A model generated the notes under the pieces. The model did no database searches. It was not told where the DNA came from and saw nothing but the letters and a program-made list of their open reading frames with translations. A program made the translations under genes and the position numbers. Positions 3,516 to 61,143 of a DNA stretch of 64,000 nt are shown here, in pieces. The stretch's first letter is position 1, and every line of letters begins with the position of its first letter. The DNA comes from an uncultured Chloroflexia bacterium (GTDB taxonomy: Bacteria > Chloroflexota > Limnocylindria > QHBO01), in assembly GCA_963837425.1 (NCBI GenBank), contig CAWINH010000002.1, forward strand, positions 355,175-419,174. Direction: 5' to 3'.

Positions 3516-6043
3516 GCCGATCGGTCGTCGGATGGGGATTCGGGCTGGCGCTGCTGGTGGCGATCCTCTCGATCGGGCAGGCCCAGGCGGCGGGTCCCCT
3601 GGCCGTGGGGGTCAGCTTCCGGCCGGTCGACCCCGTCGTCATCGGCAACGGCGCGACCGTCGTCGTTGAGCTGCGCGTGGTGGGTGGCGGGCCGCTGTCG
3701 GGGGAGCCGGTGGAGCTCAGCCTCGACGGGACGTACTACCGTCGCTCACGCACCGATGCCTCGGGCGCCGTGGCGTTCCCCCTTCCCAAGGACCTTGTGG
3801 CCGGTACTCACCCGCTGACCGCGGTCTATCCGGGACGTTCGAACACCTACCTGCCCGCGAGCGCGAAAGCGTCGCTCGAGGTTACCCCGTACCAGCTCCA
3901 GGTCCAGACCGTGCCGTCGCTTCCCGGGATGGGGTTCACCCTGGATGGGACCCGCTTCGTGGCGGGTGCCGATGGGTACGCTCGCATCCCGGTGTCGACC
4001 CCCGGCGATCATGTGCTCATCGCGCTCGACACGGAGTATGCGGCCGCCGGCACCACGGCGCAGTTCTCGCGGTGGACAGTCAACAACGAATACAGCCGCC
4101 AGGTGACGGTGAGCGTCCCGAAGGTCGGCCCGGTGCAGGCCGGATTCGACGTCTCCCGACCGGCCAGCCAGGTGTTCGTGGATCCGAGCGGGGGGCTCGT
4201 CAAAGCCGATCGCATCACGTCGTTCACCCTGCGGAGCAGCCTTGGGCAGGTGCTGACCTATCCCGACGGCCGGGAACGCGTCTACAAGGCCAGCCGCGTC
4301 GTGCGCCGCTCATCGGGCCTCGAATCGGTTGACGTCCGCTACAACGTCACCGATGTCGAGGTCGACGGTTCGAACGTTGTGAACGCCGGCCAGCAGCACT
4401 TCTACACCGCCCCCGACGCGGTCTGGCGGATCTCCCTGCTTCTCTACTCCGCGCGCATCCAGGCCAAGGATGCCCTGTTCGGTTTCACCGCCGGCAAGGC
4501 GGTGGAGATGATCTACCCGAGCGGGAAGTCGCAGATCGTCGACGTCGGGTCCAACGGCGAGGTCTACATTCCCTGGCTCGCGCGCGGGATCTACCGCGTG
4601 GCCGTGGCGGATGCCCCCGGCTGGGCCCCGTCCATGCCGGTCGCCCTCTCCCGCGACCAGGAGGTGGAACTTCGTGTCATCAGCTACCTCGACATGGGCG
4701 TCGCGGGGGCCGTGGCCCTGATCGTCATCTTCGGGCTCCTGCATCGCGGACGGCCGCACCTCATCCGCGACGCGGCGCGGGCGGTAGGTGCGGGTGTGTC
4801 CGGGCTGCGGCTGCCGCTCCCGGGAGCGGCTCACGCGCCCGCAGCCATGCGGCGGCCCGCGGAAGGGGAGCCGACGGCGAATGCCAGCCCACCACCCGTC
4901 GTCGCCAGCCCCCCACCCGTCTTGGCCAGCGCACCGAGCACTGCCACCCAGCAGCCGCAGCTCGCCCAGCAGGCAACCGAGGGCAGCGCGAAGGTCGCGC
5001 CGATCCTGGCAACGATTGCCAGGCGGTCGGACATCGACGCACTCGACCGCGTGGCTCTCGCCCACCATCGGACGATGGGCGTCAACGTTCCGGTGAGCCC
5101 CGACCTGATCGAGCTGGCGCCCTCGCTCTTCGGTCCGCAGGTCGACGAGCCCCCGCCCCCGACGAAGCCGAGGCCGACACCTCTTCCTCCGTTGCGGGCA
5201 CCCGAGAGCGCGGTCGGGGACGCAGCGCCGGCTCCGACCCCCGCAGCGCCGGCTCCGACCCCCGCAACGCCGGCTCCGGCCGAGCTCGCCGCGGAAGCGG
5301 CACCAGGCGTTGCCGATGAGTCGCTGCCATCGAAGCCCGCCCGGACCAGGCGGGCTGCAAAGCGTCCCACCACGAAGAAGGTGACGGAACCGTCGAAGGC
5401 CGTCAGGGCGAAGCGATCAACGGCCAACGCGGCACCCGCGGACGCCACGAGCGCCCCGAAGCGCGCGGCTGCGCCGAAGGCTGCCAAGACGAAGGTTCCC
5501 CGAAAGAAGGCAACCGCCACGACACCGGCGCGACGAGCGCCGGCGAAGGCCGCGAGTCGGCAGACGTCCGCATCGGCGAAGCGGACGGTCCGGAAGAAGG
5601 CGGCTCCAAGCGCTCCGCGCCGCGATTCGAGCCGGACGGTATCGGCGACTCGTGCGAGCTCGACCACGCCGGCATCCGGCACCCGGGAGACTGGCGGGAC
5701 CCGGCCGTCACGCACCCCCCGCAAGCCAGCGGCGGGGCGCTCGAGCCAGGCGGCGGTGTCGGGGGCCGCCGGGCAGCCGGTGGATGAACCGACCGAGACC
5801 CCGCCCAAGGGCGCGGAGATGCAGGCATGCCGCAACTGCGGGCTCGAGCTGTGGGCGGGCGCATCGTATTGCCGCCGCTGCGGCGAGCCGACGATTGGCG
5901 CCGGCGCCACGGACGATGCGCCGAGCGCTGGCCCACGCAGTCCGAAGCGGACGGCGACGCCTCGCGGTCGCAGTCGCCGCCGGCCGGCCACCCCCTCGGC
6001 GGGTTCCACTCGGGCCCGCGGCTCACGGCGAGGCAAGGGATGA
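3512..6043 (+). CDS. Membrane protein, paralog 2: same architecture as 1578-3515 but with a ~360 aa Lys/Ala/Pro-rich histone-H1/HU-tail-like cytoplasmic region before the C-terminal zinc ribbon (CRNCGLELWAGASYCRRCG)
   Basis: Intact 843 aa ORF whose ATG at 3512 overlaps the upstream stop (ATGA). It shows high identity to paralog 1, for example ITSFTLRSSLGQVLTYPDG and VDVRYNVTDVEVDGSNVVNAGQQ. The tail contains KRAAAPKAAKTKVPRKKATATTPARRAPAKAA-type repeats and an APAPTP tandem repeat at the DNA level (5215-5285). Confidence 0.6.
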   Translation: MSRSVVGWGFGLALLVAILSIGQAQAAGPLAVGVSFRPVDPVVIGNGATVVVELRVVGGGPLSGEPVELSLDGTYYRRSRTDASGAVAFPLPKDLVAGTHPLTAVYPGRSNTYLPASAKASLEVTPYQLQVQTVPSLPGMGFTLDGTRFVAGADGYARIPVSTPGDHVLIALDTEYAAAGTTAQFSRWTVNNEYSRQVTVSVPKVGPVQAGFDVSRPASQVFVDPSGGLVKADRITSFTLRSSLGQVLTYPDGRERVYKASRVVRRSSGLESVDVRYNVTDVEVDGSNVVNAGQQHFYTAPDAVWRISLLLYSARIQAKDALFGFTAGKAVEMIYPSGKSQIVDVGSNGEVYIPWLARGIYRVAVADAPGWAPSMPVALSRDQEVELRVISYLDMGVAGAVALIVIFGLLHRGRPHLIRDAARAVGAGVSGLRLPLPGAAHAPAAMRRPAEGEPTANASPPPVVASPPPVLASAPSTATQQPQLAQQATEGSAKVAPILATIARRSDIDALDRVALAHHRTMGVNVPVSPDLIELAPSLFGPQVDEPPPPTKPRPTPLPPLRAPESAVGDAAPAPTPAAPAPTPATPAPAELAAEAAPGVADESLPSKPARTRRAAKRPTTKKVTEPSKAVRAKRSTANAAPADATSAPKRAAAPKAAKTKVPRKKATATTPARRAPAKAASRQTSASAKRTVRKKAAPSAPRRDSSRTVSATRASSTTPASGTRETGGTRPSRTPRKPAAGRSSQAAVSGAAGQPVDEPTETPPKGAEMQACRNCGLELWAGASYCRRCGEPTIGAGATDDAPSAGPRSPKRTATPRGRSRRRPATPSAGSTRARGSRRGKG

Positions 6044-13419: not shown

Positions 13420-14670
13420 TCAGACCGGGCGGCGGAAGACGGCCACCGCGTTCTGGCCGCCGAAGCCGAAGCCGTTGATGATTGCCACCCCCACGTCCGC
13501 TCTGCGCGCCAGGTTGGGGACGTAGTCCAGGTCGCAGGCGGGGTCGGGCGTCTCGTAGTTGATCGTGGGCGGGATCAGTCCGTCGCGGATGGCCAGCACC
13601 GCGGCCAGGGCGGACATCGCGCCGGCCGCGCCCAGGGTGTGCCCGATCATGCTCTTGTTGCTGCTCACCGCCAGCCTGGGCGCGTGGTCGGCGAAGGCCG
13701 CGTGGATGGCCCTGGTCTCGGTGGCGTCATTGAGCGGGGTGCTGGTGCCGTGGGCGACCACGTAGTCCACTTCCTCCGGCTCGACGCCCGCGTCGCGCAG
13801 GGCGCGCTGCATGGCGCGGGCCGCGCCGTCACCCGGAGGGGTCGGGTGCGCTGATGTGGAACGCGTCGCCGGTCAGCGCACCGCCGGCGATCTCGGCGAT
13901 GACGGTGGCGCCGCGCGATGGGCGTGCTCGGCCGACTCGACCACCAGGATGCCGGCCGCCTCGCCGAAGACGAAGCCGTCGCGTCTGGCATCGAACGGCC
14001 GCGAGGCATGCTCCGGCTCGTCGTTGCGCTTGGAGAGGGCGCCCATGTTGGCGAGCGCGGCGAACGCCACCGGCAGGATCGCGCTCTCGGTGCCCCCGGC
14101 AACCACCGCGTCGGCGTCTCCGTGCTCGATCATGCGCTGCGCCTCCACGAACGCCTGCACCCCCGAGGCACAGGCCGCCACGCTGGTGACCACCGGGCCG
14201 CGGAGCCGGTTCTGGATGCTGATCTGGCAGGCGGCCATGGAGGGGGAGAGCATGGGCACCATGAACGGGCTGACCCGCGTCGGTCCCTGCTCGAGATAGA
14301 CGCGCTCCCCGAGGGCCACCTCGCCGATCCCGCCGCCGCCGGTGTTGACGACCACGGCGATGTCATCCCGGTTGGCGTCGCTGATCTCGAGGCCGGAATC
14401 ATCGATCGCCTGGCGGGCGGCGGCCACGGCCAGCTGGCTGAATCGGCTCATGCGGCGCGCGGCCTTGAAGTCCATCCAGTCGCGTGGCTCGAAGCCCTTC
14501 ACCTCCGCCGCGATCTGGACCTCCTCGCCGGAAGGGTCGTAGGCGGTGATGCGGGCCACGCCGCTGACGCCACCGGTCAGGTTGGACCAGTAGCTGGCCA
14601 CGTCATTGCCGATGGGGCTGATGACGCCCATGCCGGTGACGACGGCTCGACGGGCGGGGTCGCGGCTCAT
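13420..14670 (-). pseudogene. fabF: 3-oxoacyl-ACP synthase II paralog (KAS II), interrupted by two closely spaced compensating frameshifts with an internal stop
   Basis: The N-terminal 265 aa (13873-14670) and C-terminal 130 aa (13420-13812) are in the same frame. Between them, about 75 bp (13813-13915) is in the wrong frames; the correct peptide [28 protein letters not shown] is readable in a third frame. Confidence 0.6.
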
Positions 14671-14679
14671 CGGGCTGCC

Positions 14680-15963
14680 CTAGGCCTCGTAGCGGCGCAC
14701 GATGACCGTGCTGTTGTGGCCGCCCAGCCCCATCGAGTTGGAGAGGGCCACCCGCACGTCCGCGGCGCGCGCGGTGTTCGGGACGTAGTCCAGGGTGAGC
14801 TCGGGGTCGGGGTGACGGTAGTTGATGGTGGGCGGGATGCAGCCGGTCTGCACCGCCTTCACGCAGACGTAGCCCTCCAGCGCCCCGGCGGCGCCCATGA
14901 GGTGTCCGGTCATGCTCTTGGTGGAGCTCACCGCCAGCCGCTCGGCGTGCGCACCGAAGACCTCGCGAATCGCGGTCGTCTCGTAGCGGTCGTTCAGCGG
15001 CGTGCTCGTCCCGTGGGCGTTGATGTAGTCGACCGCCTCGGGACCGATGCCGGCCCGCGCCAGCGCCGCTCGCATCGCGCGCTGGTTGCCCTCCCCCCGC
15101 TCGGCCGGGGCGGCCATGTGGAACGCGTCGGCCGACGAGCCGTAGCCGATCACCTCGGCCAGCGGGGTCACGCCGCGGGCCAGGGCGTGTCCCAGCTCCT
15201 CGAGGACCAGCACCGCCGAGCCCTCCGCGATGACGAAGCCGTCGCGGGTGGCGTCGAAGGGCCGGCTGGCCTTGGTCGGATCGTACGCGCCGGTGTCCGG
15301 GTCGACGGGAGAGCCGAGCGCCTTCATCTGCTGGAACCCGGCCAGCGCCAGGGGCACCACCACGGCCTCGGCGCCCGCCCCCAGCATCAGGTCAGCCTGG
15401 CCGCGCACGATGGCCTCCATGGCTTCGCCGATGGCGTGGCCGCCGGTGGCACAGGCGCTGACCACGGCCATGTTGTGCCCGCGCAGCCCGTACTGGATGC
15501 CCACCATTCCTGACGCCGCGTCCGGGATCATGTGCGGCAGCAGGAAGGGCGAGACGCGGCCGGGGCCGCGCTCGAGGAGGGTCTGGATCCCCTCGCTCAT
15601 GATCCCGATCCCGCCGATGCCGGTGCCGAAGACGATGCCGAAGCGGTCGCCATTGGCCTGGGCCGGGTCGAGGCGCCCGTCCGCGGCCAGCAGGCCGGCC
15701 CGGCGCAGCGCCTCGCCCGCGGCGGCCACTGCGAAGTGCGTGTTGCGGTCATGCCGGCGCGCGTCCTTGGCGTCCATGTACTGGGTGGCGTCGAAGCCCT
15801 TGACCTCGCCCGCGACGTGGACCTCGAATGCCGACGTGTCGAAGAGGGTGATGTCTGCGATGCCGGAGCGGCCCGCGGTCAGGGCCTCCCAGGTCGCACC
15901 GTCCCCGATGCCGACCGGCGAGACGACCCCCACGCCGGTGACGACGGCCCGGCGGTCGCTCAC
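14680..15963 (-). CDS. fabF: 3-oxoacyl-[acyl-carrier-protein] synthase II (KAS II), intact
   Basis: KAS II motifs are present: [25 protein letters not shown] and GHLMGAAGALE. A GTG start at 15963 overlaps the fabD stop (GTGA). Confidence 0.8.
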   Translation of the reverse strand: MSDRRAVVTGVGVVSPVGIGDGATWEALTAGRSGIADITLFDTSAFEVHVAGEVKGFDATQYMDAKDARRHDRNTHFAVAAAGEALRRAGLLAADGRLDPAQANGDRFGIVFGTGIGGIGIMSEGIQTLLERGPGRVSPFLLPHMIPDAASGMVGIQYGLRGHNMAVVSACATGGHAIGEAMEAIVRGQADLMLGAGAEAVVVPLALAGFQQMKALGSPVDPDTGAYDPTKASRPFDATRDGFVIAEGSAVLVLEELGHALARGVTPLAEVIGYGSSADAFHMAAPAERGEGNQRAMRAALARAGIGPEAVDYINAHGTSTPLNDRYETTAIREVFGAHAERLAVSSTKSMTGHLMGAAGALEGYVCVKAVQTGCIPPTINYRHPDPELTLDYVPNTARAADVRVALSNSMGLGGHNSTVIVRRYEA

Positions 15964-53190: not shown

Positions 53191-55680
53191 TCACCCCCCG
53201 TCGCCGGGCGTGACGATGTTCACGAGCTTGTGCGGGATGTGGATCACCCGGCGAGGGGATCGGCCCCGCAGGTAGGCCTGGACCCGTTCCGACGCCAGCG
53301 CGAGGCGCTCGATCTCGGCCTGCGGGGTGTCGCGCGCAACGCTCAGGCGGTCCCGGAGCTTGCCGTCCACCTGGATCGGGAGCTCGATGCTGTCGCTGGT
53401 GGCGAGCGCAGGATCCCAGCTCGGCCATGGCTGCTGGTGAATGCTGTACGTCCCGCCGCGCTGCGCCCAGAGCTCCTCGGCGATATGCGGGGCGGCCGGG
53501 GCCAGCATGAGCAGCATCCGATCCACGGCCTCGCCGTGCACGGCGCCCGACACTCCGGCCTCGCGGGCCTTGCCGATCGCGTTCGAGAGCTCCATGAGCT
53601 TCGCGATGGCGGTGTTGAAATGGAACCCCTCGTAGTCGCTGGTGACGTCCCGCACGGTGGCGTGAACCGCACGCCGCAGGTCGCGGTCCGCGGCCTCGTC
53701 GCCGCTCGCGCCCGTCACCGGCTCGCTGGCCTGGACCCAGACGCGGGCCAGGAAACGGTGGATGCCCTCGATGCCCGATGCGTTCCATGGCCCGCCCTGG
53801 TCCCAGGGGCCGACGAACATCAGGAAGCAGCGGACGGTGTCCGAGCCGTACCGCGCCACGAGGTCGTCGGGATTCGCCACGTTGCCGCGGCTCTTGCTCA
53901 TCCGCTGGTGGTCCGCGCCAAGGATCTGGCCCTGGTTGCGGAGTGCAATGAACGGCTCGTCGAACGAGAGATGGCCGAGATCGCGGAGGGCCTTGACCAT
54001 GAAGCGGGCGTACATGAGGTGCAGCACCGCGTGCTCCGCGCCGCCGGTGTAGAGGTCGACCGGCATCCAGCGCCTGACCTCCTCCGGATCCCACGCGCGC
54101 TCGGAGTCCCGCGGGGAGCAGTAGCGCAGGAAATACCAGGCCGAGTCGACGAAGGTGTCCATCGTGTCCGTCTCGCGACGCGCCGGTTCGCCGCATATCG
54201 GGCAGGTGCCCGCCAGGAACGCGGCGTGCGACTGGAGCGGCGAGACGCCGGTTGGCGCGAAGTCGACGTCCGGCGGCAGCAGGACGGGGAGCTGATCGTC
54301 GGGGACCAGCTGCGGCCCGTGCTCGGCGCAGTAGACGATCGGGATCGGCGCGCCCCAGTAGCGCTGGCGGCTCACGAGCCAGTCGCGGATCCGGTAGGTC
54401 ACTGCGGCGGAGCCGAGTCCCAGGTCAGCGAGCTGGGCGGTGATGGCGCCGATGGCGTCCGACGCCGGCATGCCGCTGAACTCCCCGGAGTCCACGAGCA
54501 CCTGGTCGCTGGAGTGCGCGACGAACGCCTCGCCCTCCGGCGGACTCCCACCGGCGGGGAGCACGACGTAGCGGATCGGCAGCTCGTACTTCACCGCGAA
54601 CGCGTAGTCCCGCTCGTCGTGGGCCGGCACGGCCATGATCGCGCCCGTCCCGTAGCCGGGCAGGACGTAATCGGCGATCCAGATCCCGATCCGCTCGTTC
54701 GTCATCGGGTTCACGGCGTACGACCCCAGGAAGACCCCGGTCTTCTCGCGCTCCGCGCTCATGCGCTCGATCTCGGTCTCGCGCCGGGCGGTCTCGATGT
54801 ACGCGGCGACATCGGCCTGGCGCTCTGGCCTCGTCAGCGTCGCCACCAGCGGATGCTCGGGCGCCAGCACCATGAACGTCGCGCCGTAGATCGTGTCCGG
54901 CCGGGTCGTGAAGACCCGGATCGGCTCAATCCCGCGGCCCTCGACCGGGAAGTCGATCTCCGCCCCTTCCGATCGCCCGATCCAGTTCGTCTGCATGAGG
55001 CGAATTGGCTCCGGCCAGTCGATCTCCGTGAAGTCGAGCAGCTCGTCCGCGTAGCGCGTGGTGCGGAAGAACCACTGCTCGAGGTCGCGCTTCACGACCG
55101 GCGTCCCGCAGCGCCAGCAATGGCGATCGGCGCCCTCCACCTGCTCGCGCGCCAGCACCACCTGGTCGCGTGGGCACCAGTCGACCGGCGCCATGGCCCG
55201 ATACGCGAGCCCGGCCCGATACAGCTCGCCGAAGAGCCACTGCGTCCAGCGGTAGTACTCCGGATCGCTGGTCGCGACCTCCCGATTCCAGTCGAACATG
55301 CAGCCCATCGTCCGGAACTGGGCGCGCATGCGGTCGATGTTCGCGTAGGTCCAGGTCGCGGGGTGGATGCCGCGGTCGATGGCGGCGTTCTCGGCCGGCA
55401 GGCCGAACGAATCGAAGCCCATTGGGAACATGACGTTCAGGCCCTGCATCCGTCGCATGCGAGCCACGATGTCCGGCCCGGTGGCGGCATACCAGTGCCC
55501 GATATGGACGTCCCCGGAGGTGTAGGGGTACATCGTCAGGAGGTAGTGCTTCCGGCGTCCGTCGTCGTCCTTGGTCCGATACAGGCCATCCGCGTCCCAG
55601 CGCTCGCGCCAGCGCGCCTCGTACGAGGCGGGGTCGAACCGCCCGCCGCTGTTGCGCGCGTCCTCGATCTCGGTGGTCAT
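53191..55680 (-). CDS. leuS: Leucine--tRNA ligase
   Basis: YPYTSGDVHIGHWY, KMSKSRGN, intact 829 aa. Confidence 0.9.
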   Translation of the reverse strand: MTTEIEDARNSGGRFDPASYEARWRERWDADGLYRTKDDDGRRKHYLLTMYPYTSGDVHIGHWYAATGPDIVARMRRMQGLNVMFPMGFDSFGLPAENAAIDRGIHPATWTYANIDRMRAQFRTMGCMFDWNREVATSDPEYYRWTQWLFGELYRAGLAYRAMAPVDWCPRDQVVLAREQVEGADRHCWRCGTPVVKRDLEQWFFRTTRYADELLDFTEIDWPEPIRLMQTNWIGRSEGAEIDFPVEGRGIEPIRVFTTRPDTIYGATFMVLAPEHPLVATLTRPERQADVAAYIETARRETEIERMSAEREKTGVFLGSYAVNPMTNERIGIWIADYVLPGYGTGAIMAVPAHDERDYAFAVKYELPIRYVVLPAGGSPPEGEAFVAHSSDQVLVDSGEFSGMPASDAIGAITAQLADLGLGSAAVTYRIRDWLVSRQRYWGAPIPIVYCAEHGPQLVPDDQLPVLLPPDVDFAPTGVSPLQSHAAFLAGTCPICGEPARRETDTMDTFVDSAWYFLRYCSPRDSERAWDPEEVRRWMPVDLYTGGAEHAVLHLMYARFMVKALRDLGHLSFDEPFIALRNQGQILGADHQRMSKSRGNVANPDDLVARYGSDTVRCFLMFVGPWDQGGPWNASGIEGIHRFLARVWVQASEPVTGASGDEAADRDLRRAVHATVRDVTSDYEGFHFNTAIAKLMELSNAIGKAREAGVSGAVHGEAVDRMLLMLAPAAPHIAEELWAQRGGTYSIHQQPWPSWDPALATSDSIELPIQVDGKLRDRLSVARDTPQAEIERLALASERVQAYLRGRSPRRVIHIPHKLVNIVTPGDGG

Positions 55681-56489
55681 GGACCTCTCCTTCGTGCAAC
55701 CCACAGGTCGATGCGATAGGGGACGGCAAACGGGGTGTCGTCGGCGTGGCCGTGGCGGCCCAGGAGCGCCGCCAGCTCAAGGCGGAAGCGGTCCTGCACA
55801 TTCGGGTCGAGGAGCCGCACGTACGACGCGGTGAAGGCCAGCCCGATGAACTCCTCCGCGGTCATCTGCACCTCGTGCTCGAGGTTGAGCAGGTCGACCG
55901 GCTCGAACGAGATGCTCGCCGCGAAGCTCGCCCGCAGCTGGTCGCGGCCGACCGCCACGTAGCGGCCCATGTCGTTCGCCTCGCCGGCGTAGCGCTCCAG
56001 CAGCCGCTCGTACTCCGCGAGGAACGCGGAGCGCTCTCCGTCACGGACGTTCCAGAACAGGGCCACCCCGCCGCCCGGCCGCAGGATGCGCGCCACCTCG
56101 GCCAGCGCGCGCTGCTGGTCGAACCAGTGGAACGCCTGGGCGGCTGTCACCAGCTCGGCCGTGCCCGGGTCGAGGCCGGTCGACTCCGCCTCGGCCTGGA
56201 CCGTGCTCACCAGCAGCCCGCGGTCCGTGGCGTTCGAGCGGAGCACGTCGACCATCCCTCTGCCCGGCTCCACCGCCGTCACCCGCCAGCCCAGCTCGGC
56301 CATCGCCAGGCTTGCGCGCCCCGTGCCGGCACCGAGGTCCACGACCTGCGGCCGTTCGGAGAGGCCAAGACGCTCCCGGATCATGGCGAACAGCTCGTCC
56401 GGGTAGGGTGGCCGCAGGCGGTCGTATTCGCCGGCCCAGGCGTCGAAGCTGAGGGCCCTGGCGCGGTCGATGTCACTCACGGCGGTCAC
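55677..56489 (-). CDS. Class I SAM-dependent methyltransferase
   Basis: VVDLGAGTGRASLAM motif I; its stop overlaps the leuS ATG. Confidence 0.6.
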   Translation of the reverse strand: MTAVSDIDRARALSFDAWAGEYDRLRPPYPDELFAMIRERLGLSERPQVVDLGAGTGRASLAMAELGWRVTAVEPGRGMVDVLRSNATDRGLLVSTVQAEAESTGLDPGTAELVTAAQAFHWFDQQRALAEVARILRPGGGVALFWNVRDGERSAFLAEYERLLERYAGEANDMGRYVAVGRDQLRASFAASISFEPVDLLNLEHEVQMTAEEFIGLAFTASYVRLLDPNVQDRFRLELAALLGRHGHADDTPFAVPYRIDLWVARRRGP

Positions 56490-57060
56490 CCGATGGCGGC
56501 GTCGGCGCGTCCGGGAACCAGGCCATCAGCACCTCGTCGCGGAACGCGCCGCCCTCCGCCCGATACTGCCGGCGACGCAAGCCCTCGCGCTCGAATCCGA
56601 CGTGCTCGTACACGGCGATCGCACGGAGGTTGTCGGGAAAGACGCCGAGCGCCACCTTGACCAGCCCGGCGCGGCGCCCCCACTCCTGGGCGGCGCGCAT
56701 CAGGGCCGTCCCCACGCCAACATCCCGCCAGTCCCTCGCCACGCAGATCGAGAGCGTTCCGAGGTGGTCCGAGGTCGAGCTCCGTTCACGGCTGACCAGG
56801 ACGTTGCCGACGAGCTCGCCGCCGGCCTCTCCGACGAGTGCCAGGCTGCTCGACTCGCGAATCATCTGGCCGATGAAGAAGGCCTCATCCGGTGGGCTGA
56901 TGGCGGTGGGCGGGGTCACCAGCCAGCGGCCCTCGGCGCGCACGTCCGCGAAGAGGCGTGCCAGATTGCCCGCGTCGGTCGGCCGGGCGGGGCGCAGCGT
57001 CCAGTGTCGGCCGTCACTGGCCGTCCGCTGCTCGGTGCCTGGCGCGGCTGCGGTGTCCAT
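56473..57060 (-). CDS. GNAT family N-acetyltransferase
   Basis: GVGTALMRAAQEWGRRAG acetyl-CoA binding motif. Confidence 0.6.
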   Translation of the reverse strand: MDTAAAPGTEQRTASDGRHWTLRPARPTDAGNLARLFADVRAEGRWLVTPPTAISPPDEAFFIGQMIRESSSLALVGEAGGELVGNVLVSRERSSTSDHLGTLSICVARDWRDVGVGTALMRAAQEWGRRAGLVKVALGVFPDNLRAIAVYEHVGFEREGLRRRQYRAEGGAFRDEVLMAWFPDAPTPPSGDRRE

Positions 57061-57128
57061 TCGCTGTCCTCATTCGACGCTGTGGCGGCGCCGTGGCGCT
57101 GTGGCGACGCCGTGGCGCGTACAACAAA

Positions 57129-57155
57129 CCCCCCGTTCGTCAGGACGAAGGGGGG
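57129..57155 (-). terminator. Rho-independent terminator for tRNA-Ala
   Basis: CCCCCCGTTCGTC-AG-GACGAAGGGGGG hairpin followed on the minus strand by TTTGTTGT. Confidence 0.5.
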
Positions 57156-57191
57156 CTCCATTCGCGGTACCACCATGACTTGACCGACGGA

Positions 57192-57267
57192 TGGTGGAGC
57201 TGGGGGGACTCGAACCCCCGACCCCCTGCATGCCATGCAGGTGCTCTCCCAGCTGAGCTACAACCCC
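57192..57267 (-). tRNA. tRNA-Ala (anticodon GGC), CCA-encoded, G3:U70 identity pair
   Basis: The reverse complement reads GGGGTTGTAGCTCAGCTGGGAGAGCACCTGCATGGCATGCAGGGGGTCGGGGGTTCGAGTCCCCCCAGCTCCACCA. This folds into a canonical cloverleaf with anticodon loop ATGGCAT. Confidence 0.85.
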
Positions 57268-57642
57268 ACGGTCGGTCCACTCACCGGCGCGATATCGGAC
57301 GCCACCCCGGTCGGGTTGAGGGCCCGGCGGTCGTGACCGCGCCGTTCACCCGGCTGCTCGGCGGGCGAGTTCCGCGCCTCCCGATCGCCGGCTCCCACCA
57401 TCCCGGTTCGCTTGAGATCGGCGGGCAGCGCGTACTGGTCCCGCGTCATCGCGTTTTTCGGTGCGGAGTATAGCAGCGGCACCTCGGAGGGTGGCATTCC
57501 GGCGGGTGCGACCCCGGAGCCCCGTGTCATCCCCGCGCTCGAAGCGCGGGACCCCGGTGCCTGCTACGCGGTCCGGGGCGGGTGGCCCCCGGTCGCTGCC
57601 CCGCGCGGGTGGACGGAACGGGTGCCGGAGCGTCAGCGGTCC

Positions 57643-57953
57643 CCTCGAGCGTCACGCAGCGACGACAACCGCGAACGAACGGTGCCGGATGCCCCGCTCA
57701 CGGGCCGTTTCGTCACCGAGCGACGCCGACGGCGAACGAACCGGGCTGTCCTTCGCCGATAGCGTCGCAGGCTGACGGCCGGCAGGGCGCGGACCGCGGG
57801 CCGCTGCGGGTTCTTTTCCTCGAGCGTCGCCCAGCGACGACAACCGCGATCGAACGGTGCCGGATGCCCCGCGCACGGGCCGTTTCGTCACCGAGCGACG
57901 CCGACGGCGAACGAACCGGGCTGTCCTTCGCCGATAGCGTCGCTGGCTGACTC
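57643..57953. repeat. Two ~135 bp direct repeats (about 96% identical), period about 176 bp, upstream of tRNA-Ala
   Basis: Copy 1 at 57643-57777 and copy 2 at 57819-57953 share cctcgagcgtc..cagcgacgacaaccgcga[a/t]cgaacggtgccggatgccccgc[t/g]cacgggccgtttcgtcaccgagcgacgccgacggcgaacgaaccgggctgtccttcgccgatagcgtcgc[a/t]ggctgac. Confidence 0.7.
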
Positions 57954-58012
57954 CCGGCAGGGCCTGGGAGTTGGCGGCCAGGCGACAGGGTGCAACTCAC
58001 GGCGCGTGCTCG

Positions 58013-58465
58013 TCAGGCGGTGGGCGGTGCCTCGTCGGCAAAGTGCAGCCGCAGGCGTTCGAGGCTGGTCGCGAGGTCGTGCTGGGCGGCGCGCGCCACC
58101 ATCCCCTCGAGCGGAGCCATGAAGACGCTCGCGGCCGTGAACGACATCGCGAACCGCACGCGCGTCGCATCGCCGGCCGGTTCCAGGTCCAGGGTGGCCT
58201 CCGCATGCACGCCCGACACGGTGCTCTCGAGGACGAGGCGCCGATCCGGCTCGTACGCCGTCAGCGTCAGGTCGGCGGTGAAACGCTGCCCGAGCAGGTC
58301 ACGGACGACGCGCGCCGTCGATCCACGGCCGATGGGAGCGGGCGACGTCAGCGTCGCCGAGATGATGCCCGTCTGCCAGGCGGGGAGGTTAACTGGATCG
58401 GCGACGAACGCGAAGACGGTGCCCGGAGGTGCGGGGATCGTGGCCTCGGCGTCGGTACGCTGCAT
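58013..58465 (-). CDS. SRPBCC (START/polyketide-cyclase-like) family protein
   Basis: 150 aa; weak START/Bet v1-type pattern FAFVADPVNLPAWQTGI near the N-terminus. Confidence 0.45.
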   Translation of the reverse strand: MQRTDAEATIPAPPGTVFAFVADPVNLPAWQTGIISATLTSPAPIGRGSTARVVRDLLGQRFTADLTLTAYEPDRRLVLESTVSGVHAEATLDLEPAGDATRVRFAMSFTAASVFMAPLEGMVARAAQHDLATSLERLRLHFADEAPPTA

Positions 58466-58533
58466 CGGTGAACCCTAACGCCTGGAGGGCGAGGCGTGGG
58501 CGGCGGCCGCGTGGTGCCGTATCCTGCTTCGAC

Positions 58534-59307
58534 ATGGGTCGCTCGCTCGGGCTCAGCCTCGCCCTCATCTCGGTTGTGCTCCTCGCGTCGTGCGGCGGCG
58601 CCTCGCCGACGCCTGCCGATCCCCGGGCCACGGTGACGAGCGGGATCGAGGCCACGCTCGGCGCGCACACCTTCCACCTGGCCGCCACCGTGGACGGCAC
58701 GCTGAACGTGGCCGAAACGGGCGGGACGATCACGCTGGACGGAACGACGCTCGAGGGTGATGTCGACATCGATCGCGGGCGGACGCACCTGACCTTCGCC
58801 GTTCCGGCGTTGATGGGGATCAGCGGCGAGGTGATCACGATTGGCGCCGATGACTACCTGAAGACGAGCGTCACGGGGTCCGGCTGGGTGCACTCGCAGG
58901 CGACCGCCGGCGACCCGCTCAGCGACGTGACTGATCCGAACGCGGCCCTGACCGCCATCGAGGACCTCATGGATGCGGCCGGCGTCACGCTCGTCGCGAT
59001 GGACAGGACCGATTGCAGTGCCGGTCCCTGCTCCCACGTGGCCATGACCATCCCGGCCGACCAGCTGCAGGGAGCGGCGGATCTAGCCGGAGGGCTCGTC
59101 CCCAGCGCCGCATTCGCCGATGGGCTCGTGCTGGACCTCTACTTCTCCACGAGCGATGGGCGGCTCGCCGAGGTCTCGACCGGGATCGACAGTGCATCGG
59201 TCGGGTCGCTGACGCTTGGCGTCACCTTCAGCGCCTGGGACCAGGCGCTGATCATCGAGGCGCCTCCCGCTTCCGACATCCAGCAGGGGACCGGCCTTCC
59301 CTTCTAG
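58534..59307 (+). CDS. Lipoprotein of unknown function
   Basis: Lipobox LLASCGG followed by a beta-rich 230 aa domain. Confidence 0.5.
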   Translation: MGRSLGLSLALISVVLLASCGGASPTPADPRATVTSGIEATLGAHTFHLAATVDGTLNVAETGGTITLDGTTLEGDVDIDRGRTHLTFAVPALMGISGEVITIGADDYLKTSVTGSGWVHSQATAGDPLSDVTDPNAALTAIEDLMDAAGVTLVAMDRTDCSAGPCSHVAMTIPADQLQGAADLAGGLVPSAAFADGLVLDLYFSTSDGRLAEVSTGIDSASVGSLTLGVTFSAWDQALIIEAPPASDIQQGTGLPF

Positions 59308-59339
59308 CCCCCTCGTCTCCCCGGCCGAAGTTCCCATGA

Positions 59340-59420
59340 AGATCGGGCCGTTCGGCACTGCTGCACCCATATAGATGCGTAAAGCATATAGAGCGAAAGT
59401 GCCTATAGATGGGTCACACA
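59340..59420 (+). promoter_or_regulatory. AT-richer segment with three copies of a [C/G]ATATAGA[T/G]G motif upstream of arsR; candidate operator
   Basis: gcatatagatgcgtaaagcatatagagcgaaagtgcctatagatgg; the local AT content stands out against the 70% GC background. Confidence 0.3.
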
Positions 59421-59596
59421 GCGACCACGTGAGACGGAGGTCAGAACCCATGCAACCCGAGCTGGGACGGCGGCCCTCGTGGTTTCGTCGTCTCTTTTCG
59501 TCCGGCGACTGCCGGTGCTGGCGCGTGGGGTCACTCCTGCTGCGCCTGTCCCGGAGCCGGTGATCGTGCGGCCGTGGGCCTGAGAAGGAGCTGATC

Positions 59597-59974
59597 ATGC
59601 TCCGCGCGTCCGAAGACATCTACGCCATGCAGGCCTCGATCCTGCGGACTCTCGGCAGTCCCCGGCGACTCGAGATCGTTCACCTGCTGGGCGAGGGTCC
59701 GCTCGAGGTTCATCGGCTCGCCCGGCTCCTCGAGATCGCTCAGCCGACCGTCTCCCAGCACCTTGCCGCGATGCGCGCGGCCGGCCTGGTGGAGCCGCTG
59801 CGCGACGGGAGAGAGGTCCGGTACCGACTCACCGACGATGCCATCCGCCAGGCCTGTGACCAGATGCGCGAATTCCTGTACCGGCGCCTGAGCCGATTGA
59901 GCCTTCTTGCGGCTCCCACCCATGACGGCCACGCGGAGCAGGTCGCTCCGCTCGTCGCGGGGAGCCGCAGGTAA
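59597..59974 (+). CDS. ArsR/SmtB-family transcriptional regulator
   Basis: LRTLGSPRRLEIVHLLGEGPLEVHRLARLLEIAQPTVSQHLAAMRAAGLV. Confidence 0.65.
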   Translation: MLRASEDIYAMQASILRTLGSPRRLEIVHLLGEGPLEVHRLARLLEIAQPTVSQHLAAMRAAGLVEPLRDGREVRYRLTDDAIRQACDQMREFLYRRLSRLSLLAAPTHDGHAEQVAPLVAGSRR

Positions 59975-60010
59975 CGAAACCAACGAGACCACGAGAAGGA
60001 GCACCGAACC

Positions 60011-60382
60011 ATGGCAGATCACGAGAAGCTGGTCATCATGGCCACCCACGGTCCCGAGGACCCCGAGCTGGCCACGATCCCGTTCGTCATGGCCTGCGCC
60101 GCCCTTGCCTCGGATGTCGAGGTCGTGATGGGCTTCCAGGCCAACGGTGTGTGCCTCGTGCATCGCGGCGAAGCCGAGCACGTGGCCGCCCCGGAGTTCC
60201 CGCCGCTCACCAAGCTCATGACCGATTTCGTCGAGCTGGGCGGAACGATGCTCGTCTGCGGCCCATGCATCAAGAGCCGCGAGATGCAGCCCGAGCTCGA
60301 TCTGGTCGATGGCGCCGAGGTCGTCGCCGCAGGGCGATTCGTCGCGGAGATCACGTCGGCCACCAACAGCCTCGTCTACTAG
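60011..60382 (+). CDS. DsrE/DsrF-like sulfur-relay protein
   Basis: LVIMATHGPEDPE...GGTMLVCGPCIKSRE. Confidence 0.6.
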   Translation: MADHEKLVIMATHGPEDPELATIPFVMACAALASDVEVVMGFQANGVCLVHRGEAEHVAAPEFPPLTKLMTDFVELGGTMLVCGPCIKSREMQPELDLVDGAEVVAAGRFVAEITSATNSLVY

Positions 60383-60405
60383 CGAACCGCAAAAGGAGCC
60401 ATGAC

Positions 60406-60675
60406 ATGACCCTCACCGCACCACAGACGACCGAGCTCGAAGGGCTCAGCGCAGCAAAGATCATCGACGCCCGTGGCAGCGCCTGCCCCGGCCCGCTCCT
60501 CGAGGCGAAGAAGGGGATGGGTACCGTCGCGATCGGCGATGTCATCGAGATCTGGTCGAGTGATCCCGCCACCAAGAAGGACATCGGCGCCTGGTCGGCC
60601 AAGGTCGGTCATGAGTTCCTGGGCTCCGTCGAGGCCAGCGGCTACGACCGCGTCCTCGTTCGGCGCGGCAAGTAG
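60406..60675 (+). CDS. TusA-like sulfur carrier protein
   Basis: IDARGSACPGPLLEAKKG (CPxP motif); AAAGGAG RBS. Confidence 0.6.
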   Translation: MTLTAPQTTELEGLSAAKIIDARGSACPGPLLEAKKGMGTVAIGDVIEIWSSDPATKKDIGAWSAKVGHEFLGSVEASGYDRVLVRRGK

Positions 60676-60690
60676 CGAGGCCACGGTGCC

Positions 60691-61143
60691 ATGAGCGCGC
60701 TCTCCGTCATCGAGAAGCCCCCGGAGGTGGGGGACGGTCGGGATCGTAAGCCCCGGATCCTGGTCTTCTCCACGAACAACATCTCCGATCCGGGCATCGA
60801 CATGGCGGGGAGCGCGCACATGCACTACTCGACCGCCGTCACCGTGATCAGCCTGCCGTGCACCAGCGGCATCAAGCCGCGCTGGATCGTGCATGCCATC
60901 GAGCGCGGATTCGATGGCGTCTTCATCGCATCCGATGGAGAAGAGTGCGCCTACCTGGCCGATTGCAGCGCGCGCGCGGCGCGAATCGTGGCGCGCGCCC
61001 AGGAGCTGCTCACCGAGCGCGGATTCGAGCCGCAGCGATTGAAGATGGCGGCCATCTGCTCGGTCTGCGCCGAGGCGTTCACGAAGCACATGCGGCAGTT
61101 CTCCGAGAGCCTGTCAGCGCTCGGGCCGTCGAGCAAGGGGTGA
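60691..61143 (+). CDS. MvhD/FlpD-like iron-sulfur subunit, degenerate at the N-terminal Cys motif
   Basis: RILVFSTNNISDPGIDMAG lines up with the MvhD CNWCSYAGADxAG region but lacks the Cys residues; later ISLPCTSGIKP...ADGVFIASDGEECAYLADC. Confidence 0.5.
   Translation: MSALSVIEKPPEVGDGRDRKPRILVFSTNNISDPGIDMAGSAHMHYSTAVTVISLPCTSGIKPRWIVHAIERGFDGVFIASDGEECAYLADCSARAARIVARAQELLTERGFEPQRLKMAAICSVCAEAFTKHMRQFSESLSALGPSSKG

Follow-up and report, generated by a model that had tools for sequence, protein, structure and literature searches.

A predicted leuS T-box riboswitch carrying a tRNA-Ala(GGC) gene in its Stem III loop

We analysed a 64,000-nucleotide (nt) stretch of DNA from an uncultured Chloroflexia bacterium (GTDB Limnocylindria, QHBO01; assembly GCA_963837425.1, contig CAWINH010000002.1), hereafter the window, and focused on its single tRNA gene, a tRNA-Ala(GGC) found by ARAGORN at 57267..57192 on the minus strand. 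Very probably, Stem III of a transcription-attenuating T-box riboswitch holds this gene in its loop; the riboswitch would respond to tRNA-Leu and head an operon encoding a GNAT acetyltransferase, a methyltransferase and leucyl-tRNA synthetase (LeuRS, the product of leuS). A pair of 146-nt direct repeats located farther upstream appears to lie outside this unit. The original prediction had described the tRNA, a hairpin terminator behind it and the repeats as separate features. As read from the sequence, the tRNA and the "terminator" are parts of one Leu T-box leader, which that prediction missed.

The tRNA gene itself has the features of a functional bacterial tRNA-Ala: a cloverleaf, canonical D- and T-loops, an alanine anticodon, and the G3:U70 pair, A73 and encoded CCA, all three legible by direct reading. 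It scores 62.5 bits against the Rfam tRNA model, and the earlier description of a canonical tRNA with G3:U70 and an encoded CCA is thus borne out. At default Rfam thresholds, the tRNA is the sole report in the window and the T-box goes unseen. A permissive scan (Rfam 15, region 56000-59500, both strands, E <= 1) matched the T-box model RF00230 in full, from model position 1 to 219, over 57458..57138 on the minus strand (44.4 bits, E = 8.5e-8). In this alignment, the model accommodates the entire tRNA as an insertion of 75 nt within the loop of the Stem III hairpin. By direct reading of the leader, the T-box hallmarks are all present and in sequence order. The predicted elements are as follows.

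57467..57475, minus strand: probable promoter, extended -10 box TGcTATACT, about 9 nt 5' of the first T-box nucleotide (direct reading)
57121..57458, minus strand: complete Leu T-box leader including the nested tRNA, to the terminator U-tract (Rfam RF00230)
57356..57453, minus strand: Stem I, with K-turn GAUGA...GAGC, specifier loop AGUA / GAA-CUC-G, AG bulge AGCGA and distal loop GGGAUGGUGGGAG (Rfam alignment and direct reading)
57436..57433, minus strand: AGUA, 5' side of the specifier loop (Rfam alignment, direct reading)
57372..57370, minus strand: S-turn GAA (Rfam alignment, direct reading)
57369..57367, minus strand: specifier CUC, Leu (Rfam alignment, direct reading)
57366, minus strand: conserved purine G (Rfam alignment, direct reading)
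57283..57355, minus strand: Stem II and Stem IIA/B region with linker (Rfam alignment; 27-nt insertion in Stem II)
57271..57282, minus strand: purine string GAGUG (RRRNG motif) and Stem III 5' arm GACCGAC (direct reading)
57192..57267, minus strand: tRNA-Ala(GGC) gene, in the Stem III loop (ARAGORN, Rfam)
57234..57232, minus strand: anticodon of tRNA-Ala(GGC) (ARAGORN)
57180..57188, minus strand: Stem III 3' arm GUCGGUC, then conserved AA (direct reading, alignment)
57141..57179, minus strand: antiterminator, with helix A1, bulge UGGUACC at 57172..57166 and helix A2 GCGAA/UUCGU (Rfam alignment)
57174..57163, minus strand: T-box sequence GGUGGUACCGCG (direct reading)
57121..57155, minus strand: intrinsic terminator (-22 kcal/mol, z = -3.3)
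57128..57121, minus strand: terminator U-tract UUUGUUGU

In Stem I, a K-turn (GA motif) is found at the base, and the distal AG bulge and loop, which in T-boxes form the platform for the tRNA elbow, align to the model. The CUC specifier, a leucine triplet, agrees with the presence of leuS as the third gene of the operon. In Stem III, GAGUG-GACCGAC ... GUCGGUC-AA matches the 5'-RRRNG ... AA-3' purine-string arrangement, the RRRNG-Stem III-AA unit being the conserved motif of the T-box discriminator, with a terminal loop described as variable (PMC7778990, PMC7583486). The tRNA occupies this loop, with a 3-nt unpaired spacer on either side (CGU on the 5' side, UCC on the 3' side). Downstream, a 7-nt UGGNACC bulge separates helices A1 and A2, and its UGGU is complementary to a tRNA 3' ACCA. 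The isolated antiterminator is weak (-7.3 kcal/mol), as expected since this structure is stabilised by tRNA, and the minimum-free-energy fold of the entire leader (z = -1.1) did not recover the T-box fold. Beginning 36 nt past the CCA, the G+C-rich terminator hairpin reads CCCCCCUUCGU-CCUG-ACGAA(C)GGGGGG followed by UUUGUUGU. The 3' strand of A2, UUCGU, doubles as the 5' strand of the terminator, so that the two structures are mutually exclusive. Hence, the hairpin noted earlier behind the tRNA is real and has a U-tract, but it would be the regulated terminator of the Leu T-box and not the tRNA's own.

The extended -10 box TGcTATACT at 57475..57467 is the probable promoter of the leader and of the tRNA. 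A TGnTATACT box stands at an equal distance from the T-box start in five related loci (L048, L072, L079, L120 and L127; loci are given by their L numbers throughout), and a promoter consensus scan requiring a -35 box found none. On the other side of the leader, the predicted operon comprises three genes.

56473..57060, minus strand: GNAT acetyltransferase, first operon gene (Pfam PF00583, E = 2e-16)
55677..56489, minus strand: class I S-adenosylmethionine (SAM)-dependent methyltransferase, second gene (Pfam PF08241, E = 6e-20)
53191..55704, minus strand: leuS, leucyl-tRNA synthetase, third gene (NCBIfam TIGR00396 leuS_bact)

The leuS product scores 951 bits, as compared to the TIGR00396 cut-off of 548, and its nearest LeuRS sequences are those of Limnocylindria-type Chloroflexota metagenome-assembled genomes (MAGs), at 77-78% identity. 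A ribosome-binding site, GAGGA, is located about 7 nt 5' of the GNAT ATG. The 5' untranslated region (UTR) between the terminator U-tract and this site also contains a 19-nt tandem direct repeat in two copies (GCCACGGCGYCGCCACAGC) at 57080-57117 on the minus strand.

The arrangement recurs far beyond the window. One genome per species (GTDB) was scanned for CTCCACCA-N(4-34)-GGTGGTACCGCG, that is, a tRNA-Ala 3' end followed 4-34 nt on by a T-box sequence, and at least 120 loci were obtained. Among the matches listed, a tRNA ends exactly at the matched CCA in 98 of 120 cases, and all 98 are tRNA-Ala(GGC); as the pattern forces an Ala-type acceptor end, the free result is only that the anticodon is GGC rather than UGC or CGC. 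The remaining 22 of the 120 listed matches consist of fortuitous hits in coding DNA, T-boxes that are unrelated and loci truncated by a contig end. All the nested tRNAs among the matches listed sit in Stem III. The strict pattern GAA-CUC-R is found 42-143 nt upstream of the tRNA in 86 of 96 listed loci, and in the other ten CUC is kept, by eye, in a variant context or farther upstream. A hairpin and a T-rich tract follow the T-box sequence in 87 of 97 listed loci; in the other ten, all of them high-G+C Chloroflexota, the hairpin is present and the U-tract is weaker.

A full-length T-box match spans the tRNA in all 15 tested loci with complete upstream sequence. In orthologous leaders, RF00230 scores range from 35 to 117 bits, with 35-64 bits in the window's own clade, and four leaders exceed the gathering score of 93 (L027, 117 bits; L043, 111; L033, 108; L066, 98). 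In L027, the T-box and the enclosed tRNA both pass the curated Rfam thresholds. A LeuRS 45-78% identical to that of the window is encoded downstream in almost all listed loci with enough sequence. In Bacillota and Thermomicrobiales leuS directly follows the T-box, and in Limnocylindria-like Chloroflexota resembling the window it is preceded by a GNAT gene, with or without the methyltransferase. A GNAT gene stands between the T-box and leuS in about 30 Chloroflexota loci among the matches listed; examples of GNAT, often together with a SAM methyltransferase, ahead of leuS are L004, L010, L037, L038, L079, L088, L113 and L127. In the closest relative, L127, the tRNA is identical to that of the window and the T-box nearly identical.

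By record title, the carriers belong to Chloroflexota ("Chloroflexia", Limnocylindria, Thermomicrobiales, Sphaerobacter, Anaerolineae), Bacillota (Syntrophomonadaceae, Peptococcaceae, Thermacetogeniaceae, Desulfofundulus, Desulfitispora, Thermosyntropha), Coprothermobacterota, Caldisericota and Armatimonadota, plus unclassified or probably mis-binned MAGs. Cultured carriers are Desulfofundulus thermosubterraneus DSM 16057, Desulfitispora alkaliphila DSM 22410 and Thermosyntropha lipolytica DSM 11003. As a separate observation, a near-threshold Rfam match to the group II intron catalytic domain (38.2 bits, gathering score 40) lies at L066:3865-3940, between the T-box terminator and leuS of a Syntrophomonadaceae MAG.

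Both the Stem III helix and the enclosed cloverleaf are conserved by compensatory change. Stem III was aligned in 60 distinct orthologues, anchored on RRRNG and AA, with the tRNA swapped for a tetraloop. Over its 7 base pairs (bp), 86% of the cells pair, a percentage somewhat inflated by keeping the best-pairing register among the alternatives, and all seven pairs show changes on both sides. The covariation is 0.70, as compared to 0.30 in shuffles; none of 500 shuffles reached the observed value, and it falls to 0.18 or less when the partner strand is slid. For the cloverleaf, in 28 distinct orthologous tRNAs, 588 of 588 stem cells pair and 12 of 21 pairs are compensatory. The GGC anticodon, U33 and the D- and T-loop signatures are invariant in the nested tRNAs. 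The G3:U70 pair and ACCA, which fall within the tRNA positions preset by the search pattern (1-4/69-76), are found in 96 of 97 orthologues, the exception having ARAGORN boundaries off by one base, and GGC is found in all 97. Since a module kept for its shape alone would need no fixed anticodon, the nested gene is, on this comparative evidence, most likely a working tRNA-Ala. Among the orthologues, 1 to 20 nt of extra sequence lie between the tRNA and the arms of Stem III, and Stem III is in every case set apart from the acceptor stem by unpaired spacers of at least 1-3 nt. Such spacers fit a need for RNase P access (PMC9433436).

These elements suggest the following mechanism. Transcription would start at the extended -10 promoter and yield, in the order given by the sequence, Stem I (CUC), the Stem II region, the purine string with the 5' arm of Stem III, tRNA-Ala, the Stem III 3' arm and AA, the antiterminator, the competing terminator and the leuS operon. 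Following the established T-box mechanism, an uncharged tRNA-Leu(GAG) would pair with CUC while its free ACCA pairs with UGGU, so that the antiterminator would hold and transcription would read through to leuS. With a charged tRNA-Leu the antiterminator would not be held, and the terminator would form. The insert should leave the T-box fold intact because the ends of the tRNA are adjacent and the Stem III loop is variable and points away from the tRNA-binding surfaces. From general tRNA biology, each leader transcript, terminated or not, would carry one pre-tRNA-Ala, which RNase P and 3' processing would free after the co-transcriptional decision. The tRNA gene would thereby borrow the promoter and the terminator of the riboswitch, and leaders that are otherwise discarded would give a useful product.

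The leucine reading of the specifier was compared with alternatives that involve the nested tRNA itself. The triplet following CUC is GCC, an alanine codon, in the window and in 60 of 96 loci, but GTC in 15 and ACC in 10, with CUC constant. A GCC specifier for alanine, or a two-codon T-box that also reads the nested tRNA, was rejected, as the triplet after CUC varies and its bases form the lower stem. Docking in cis of the nested tRNA's ACCA on the UGGU bulge was rejected as well, because the discriminator needs a free 3' end, and because the Leu specifier would be left without purpose. Indeed, what the discriminator senses is an unattached 3' end, and it turns away a tRNA with anything linked there (PMC7583486). 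We found nothing in the mechanism that would explain why Ala(GGC) is combined with Leu.

Several points weigh against the nested T-box. Its score in the window, 44.4 bits, is below the RF00230 gathering score of 93, and the element is missed at default thresholds; the low score can be attributed to the 75-nt and 27-nt insertions and to high G+C, no motif being absent. The search pattern demanded an Ala-type acceptor end and an encoded CCA, so the finding that the nested gene is always a tRNA-Ala is partly built in, and the choice of register makes Stem III look somewhat better paired than it may be. In addition, we infer the single transcript, the processing of the tRNA and antitermination by tRNA-Leu from sequence. 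The mechanism also presumes a tRNA-Leu(GAG) in this genome, and the nested copy may be the sole tRNA-Ala(GGC) of its carriers. ARAGORN found no tRNA-Leu(GAG) gene within the 64 kb, and no second GGC copy was found within 8-10 kb of the nested tRNA in relatives. Finally, the repeats have no detectable role, and "no function" is for them an argument from absence of evidence.

A free-standing tRNA-Ala(CGC) is located 2.6-6 kb upstream of the nested tRNA-Ala(GGC) in several relatives (L058:1623-1698, L079:1557-1632, L120:4333-4408 and L127:3978-4053). Unlike these loci, the window has no tRNA-Ala(CGC) within its 64 kb.

One alternative is compatible with the nested T-box and adds a function to it: the tRNA would be a working part of the riboswitch rather than a passenger. 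It could act as a folding clamp joining the arms of Stem III, as a delay between Stem I and the discriminator, or through RNase P and 3' cleavage that would sever Stem I from the mRNA and so affect leuS mRNA stability or reset the switch. The nesting is fixed at one position, the Stem III loop, over at least five phylum labels and at least 97 loci, and the constant unpaired spacers would suit cleavage by RNase P. However, canonical leuS T-boxes, such as that of Bacillus subtilis, are not known to need a tRNA insert in order to function, and the 1-20 nt variation of the flanks makes a precise structural role less likely. The conservation could also be explained by a tRNA gene locked in place for want of a promoter of its own. 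We regard a working part as possible rather than likely.

A stronger form of this idea is an ancient obligate chimera, in which the sole tRNA-Ala(GGC) gene would be expressed only through the riboswitch leader, and the switch would incorporate both the tRNA domain and its removal by RNase P and 3' processing, through folding or timing of the discriminator and through the 5' end and stability of the leuS mRNA. If it held, LeuRS synthesis would be coupled to tRNA-processing capacity and to the supply of an unrelated tRNA. We put it forward tentatively, with odds clearly against it.

A very unlikely reading is that of a normal, independent tRNA gene that has a terminator of its own, the T-box likeness being spurious or a decayed relic: the sub-threshold scores of the window and its close relatives would fit such a view, but the T-box motifs are all intact and in order with a specifier that matches the downstream leuS, the same architecture reaches 117 bits in other phyla, Stem III covaries, and the 5' arm of the terminator overlaps the antiterminator as the T-box mechanism requires.

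Upstream of this predicted unit, the repeats lie between the T-box promoter and the stop codon of an SRPBCC gene.

57643..57788, strand unassigned: repeat copy A, 146 nt, holding a pair of sub-motifs (each about 36 nt, 61 nt apart) and a strong minus-strand hairpin
57789..57817: unique spacer, 29 nt, with a terminator-like hairpin and T-run on the plus strand at 57794-57813
57818..57963: repeat copy B, 146 nt, 95% identical to copy A
58013..58465, minus strand: SRPBCC/polyketide-cyclase-like gene, upstream neighbour outside the riboswitch (Pfam PF10604)

The two copies share 95.2% identity, differing at 7 of 146 positions, and are indel-free with a period of 175; the homology ends cleanly on both. 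They are the most similar repeat pair in the window and, with a BLAST E value of 1e-62, are far beyond chance. Two direct copies upstream of the tRNA had been reported correctly, with values that need adjusting (146 nt instead of 135, 95.2% identity instead of 96%, period 175 instead of 176). The repeats occupy a spacer of about 540 nt and lie about 170-490 nt upstream of the -10 box; this distance, their G+C content of 74% and the lack of any promoter-like site in them speak against the earlier suggestion of duplicated promoter or UP-type elements. Their G+C is flat over the three codon positions (0.70-0.78), as compared to 0.87-0.93 at third positions and about 0.5 at second positions in the real genes here. 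As the period, 175, is not divisible by 3 either, the repeats are non-coding, which excludes a coding repeat and confirms that the open reading frames (ORFs) across them are artefacts. A motif, CGTCRCnnAGCGACGnCnACnGCGAwCGAAC, occurs four times over the two repeats, twice in each by way of the sub-motifs. Other, more diverged direct-repeat pairs in the window, at 2277-2576 / 4211-4510 (79%) and 13429-13791 / 14692-15054 (71-72%), are probably paralogous genes.

L127, L048, L072 and L084 have the promoter, T-box and tRNA in common with the window but lack the repeats. In L048, L072 and L084, a distance of 40-70 nt separates the end of the SRPBCC gene from this -10 box; L079 and L120 have an epimerase-like gene ahead of the T-box promoter; and in L127, four other genes lie between the SRPBCC gene and the promoter. 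Given these varied arrangements, the junction is variable and the repeats are private to the lineage. At the corresponding place upstream of the T-box, about 224-551 nt from its tRNA, the Limnocylindria relative L050 carries a different, unrelated set of repeats (139 nt with 73% identity and a spacing of 189, in part palindromic, motif CACGGGCGTATCGGCC). No further copies at 3 mismatches or fewer were found in the window, and neither blastn nor nhmmer found homologues in the window and 127 loci. A metagenome scan with the sub-motif AGCGACGNCNACNGCGAACGAAC returned only five matches, all by chance.

Within the SRPBCC gene, the stretch 58246-58295 resembles 47-50 nt of each repeat (57698-57744 and 57873-57919), as an inverted match of 78% identity. 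This similarity scores 34.6-35.6 bits, as compared to a maximum of 24.7 in 200 control segments, and points to local rearrangement as the origin of the repeats. The sequence evidence suggests that they most likely arose by local duplication or rearrangement at this junction, which varies among relatives. Candidate sources at the level of genes were rejected: no similarity was found to the epimerase-like gene of L079 and L120, of which the repeats might have been a decayed copy, and blastx gave nothing convincing for protein-level SRPBCC remnants, the inverted similarity being at the nucleotide level only. If transcription of the SRPBCC gene read through into the repeats, these would form, in the transcript, an antisense to its codons about 57-73.

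A functional non-coding element is rather unlikely. It could be a tandem small RNA, a structured 3' UTR of the SRPBCC gene pairing with its own coding region, or a four-site array for protein binding. Each unit has its strong minus-strand hairpin, the sub-motif is present four times, copy A is followed by the plus-strand terminator-like hairpin and T-run, and the inverted likeness to SRPBCC codons about 57-73 is well above the controls. However, folding gives weak z-scores, -2.0 and -1.6 for the minus strand and near 0 for the plus strand, and no Rfam family matches the repeats at E <= 1 in the region 56000-59500 on either strand, the only matches there being to the T-box and to tRNA-shaped models. 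With no homologue in the collections searched either, the tandem non-coding RNA proposed earlier is not supported. The absence of the repeats from the closest relatives leaves no sign of selection on them.

Attachment-site remnants of a lost tRNA-targeting element, also among the earlier proposals, or a small mobile element of the miniature inverted-repeat (MITE) or repetitive extragenic palindromic (REP) type, are highly improbable. tRNA genes are common integration sites, and the repeats have imperfect sub-terminal inverted repeats (72% over 29 nt). Nevertheless, they have no similarity to the tRNA, they sit next to each other, 29 nt apart, instead of on either side of an island, and their place is 5' of the tRNA, past the T-box and the promoter. 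No integrase is present nearby, as had been noted earlier. As for a mobile element, there are two copies in 64 kb, none in the 127 loci and none in the public collections searched, and the inverted repeats are weak.

Mis-assembly can create tandem duplicates, and a collapsed assembly duplication had been named in the original prediction as the case against the repeats, but such an artefact is very unlikely given the 7 differences in 146 positions, the unique 29-nt spacer, the clean ends of the homology and a locus internal to a 682-kb contig.

Around the repeats, a perfect G+C hairpin, CCCGCGC-TTCGA-GCGCGGG, lies at 57533-57551 on the minus strand, without a U-tract, in the interval that separates the repeats from the T-box promoter; possibly it terminates transcription of the SRPBCC gene. 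The SRPBCC protein matches the NCBIfam "Rv0910 family toxin" at 69.6 bits, under the cut-off of 100. Past this gene, at 59597-60700, ORFs resemble an ArsR-type helix-turn-helix regulator, a DsrE-like protein and a TusA-like protein, as judged from Pfam matches of the corresponding genes of L126, which shares this context.

The repeats, an orphan duplication, are of little importance next to the conserved leuS T-box with its nested tRNA-Ala(GGC). The T-box is a model case of RNA reading RNA, and its terminated leaders are usually seen as regulatory by-products without further use. Here, a housekeeping tRNA gene would lie within the sensing domain of a T-box for a different tRNA, and species-level genomes numbering about a hundred at least, spread over several deep lineages of bacteria, keep this arrangement. 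If so, the leader would be a productive transcript, and the tRNA gene would need neither a promoter nor a terminator of its own. RNase P would cut inside the riboswitch after each decision, so that the timing of folding relative to processing, and the fate of the read-through mRNA, would become testable. The Stem III loop would tolerate a 76-nt folded domain, which could be useful in T-box engineering. Moreover, T-box regulation of leuS in Chloroflexota is probably under-counted, because standard annotation, with its gathering score of 93 bits, misses the T-box of this clade.

As compared to known systems, the leader shares with the canonical leuS T-box (RF00230; Bacillus subtilis leuS, CUC) the Stem I K-turn, S-turn, CUC with purine and distal platform, the Stem II region, the RRRNG-Stem III-AA unit, the antiterminator with its UGGN bulge, the competing intrinsic terminator and the control of leuS. 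In contrast to the canonical case, a complete tRNA-Ala(GGC) gene in the Stem III loop adds 76-100 nt here, the window's clade scores below the Rfam gathering threshold, and the Chloroflexota operon has GNAT, with or without the methyltransferase, before leuS. CUC is the specifier in 74% of Leu T-boxes in TBDB. Odd insertions in all domains of T-boxes have been noted (PMC7583486), and stem Sa of Staphylococcus glyS is a 42-nt hairpin in the terminator/antiterminator domain that tunes the choice of tRNA-Gly isoacceptor (PMC9177973). Stem Sa is likewise an extra folded RNA module tolerated in the discriminator region and conserved within lineages. Known inserts of this lineage-specific sort are small hairpins. 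In contrast, the insert described here is in Stem III and is itself the gene of a mature tRNA unrelated to the ligand.

Other tRNAs are cut from longer transcripts without a dedicated promoter or terminator, as are tRNA-Ile/Ala in rRNA spacers and those of the E. coli thrU-tyrU-glyT-thrT-tufB transcript. Release by RNase P and 3' enzymes would be common to both cases. However, the co-transcribed tRNAs lie between genes, whereas the nested tRNA lies inside a regulatory fold, upstream of the decision point, so that it would be made in the on or the off state. MALAT1-mascRNA and MEN-beta (RF01684) also have a tRNA-shaped module in a longer RNA, where cleavage by RNase P sets the ends of both products; they are eukaryotic, their product is not a decoding tRNA, and we claim no membership, the weak RF01684 match in the window (E = 0.4) arising only because the sequence is tRNA-shaped. 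Searches of the full-text literature yielded no account of a T-box leader that houses a tRNA gene, although an earlier mention in passing is possible. The predicted leader differs from the T-boxes that we found described in that a complete tRNA gene for another amino acid lies within Stem III.

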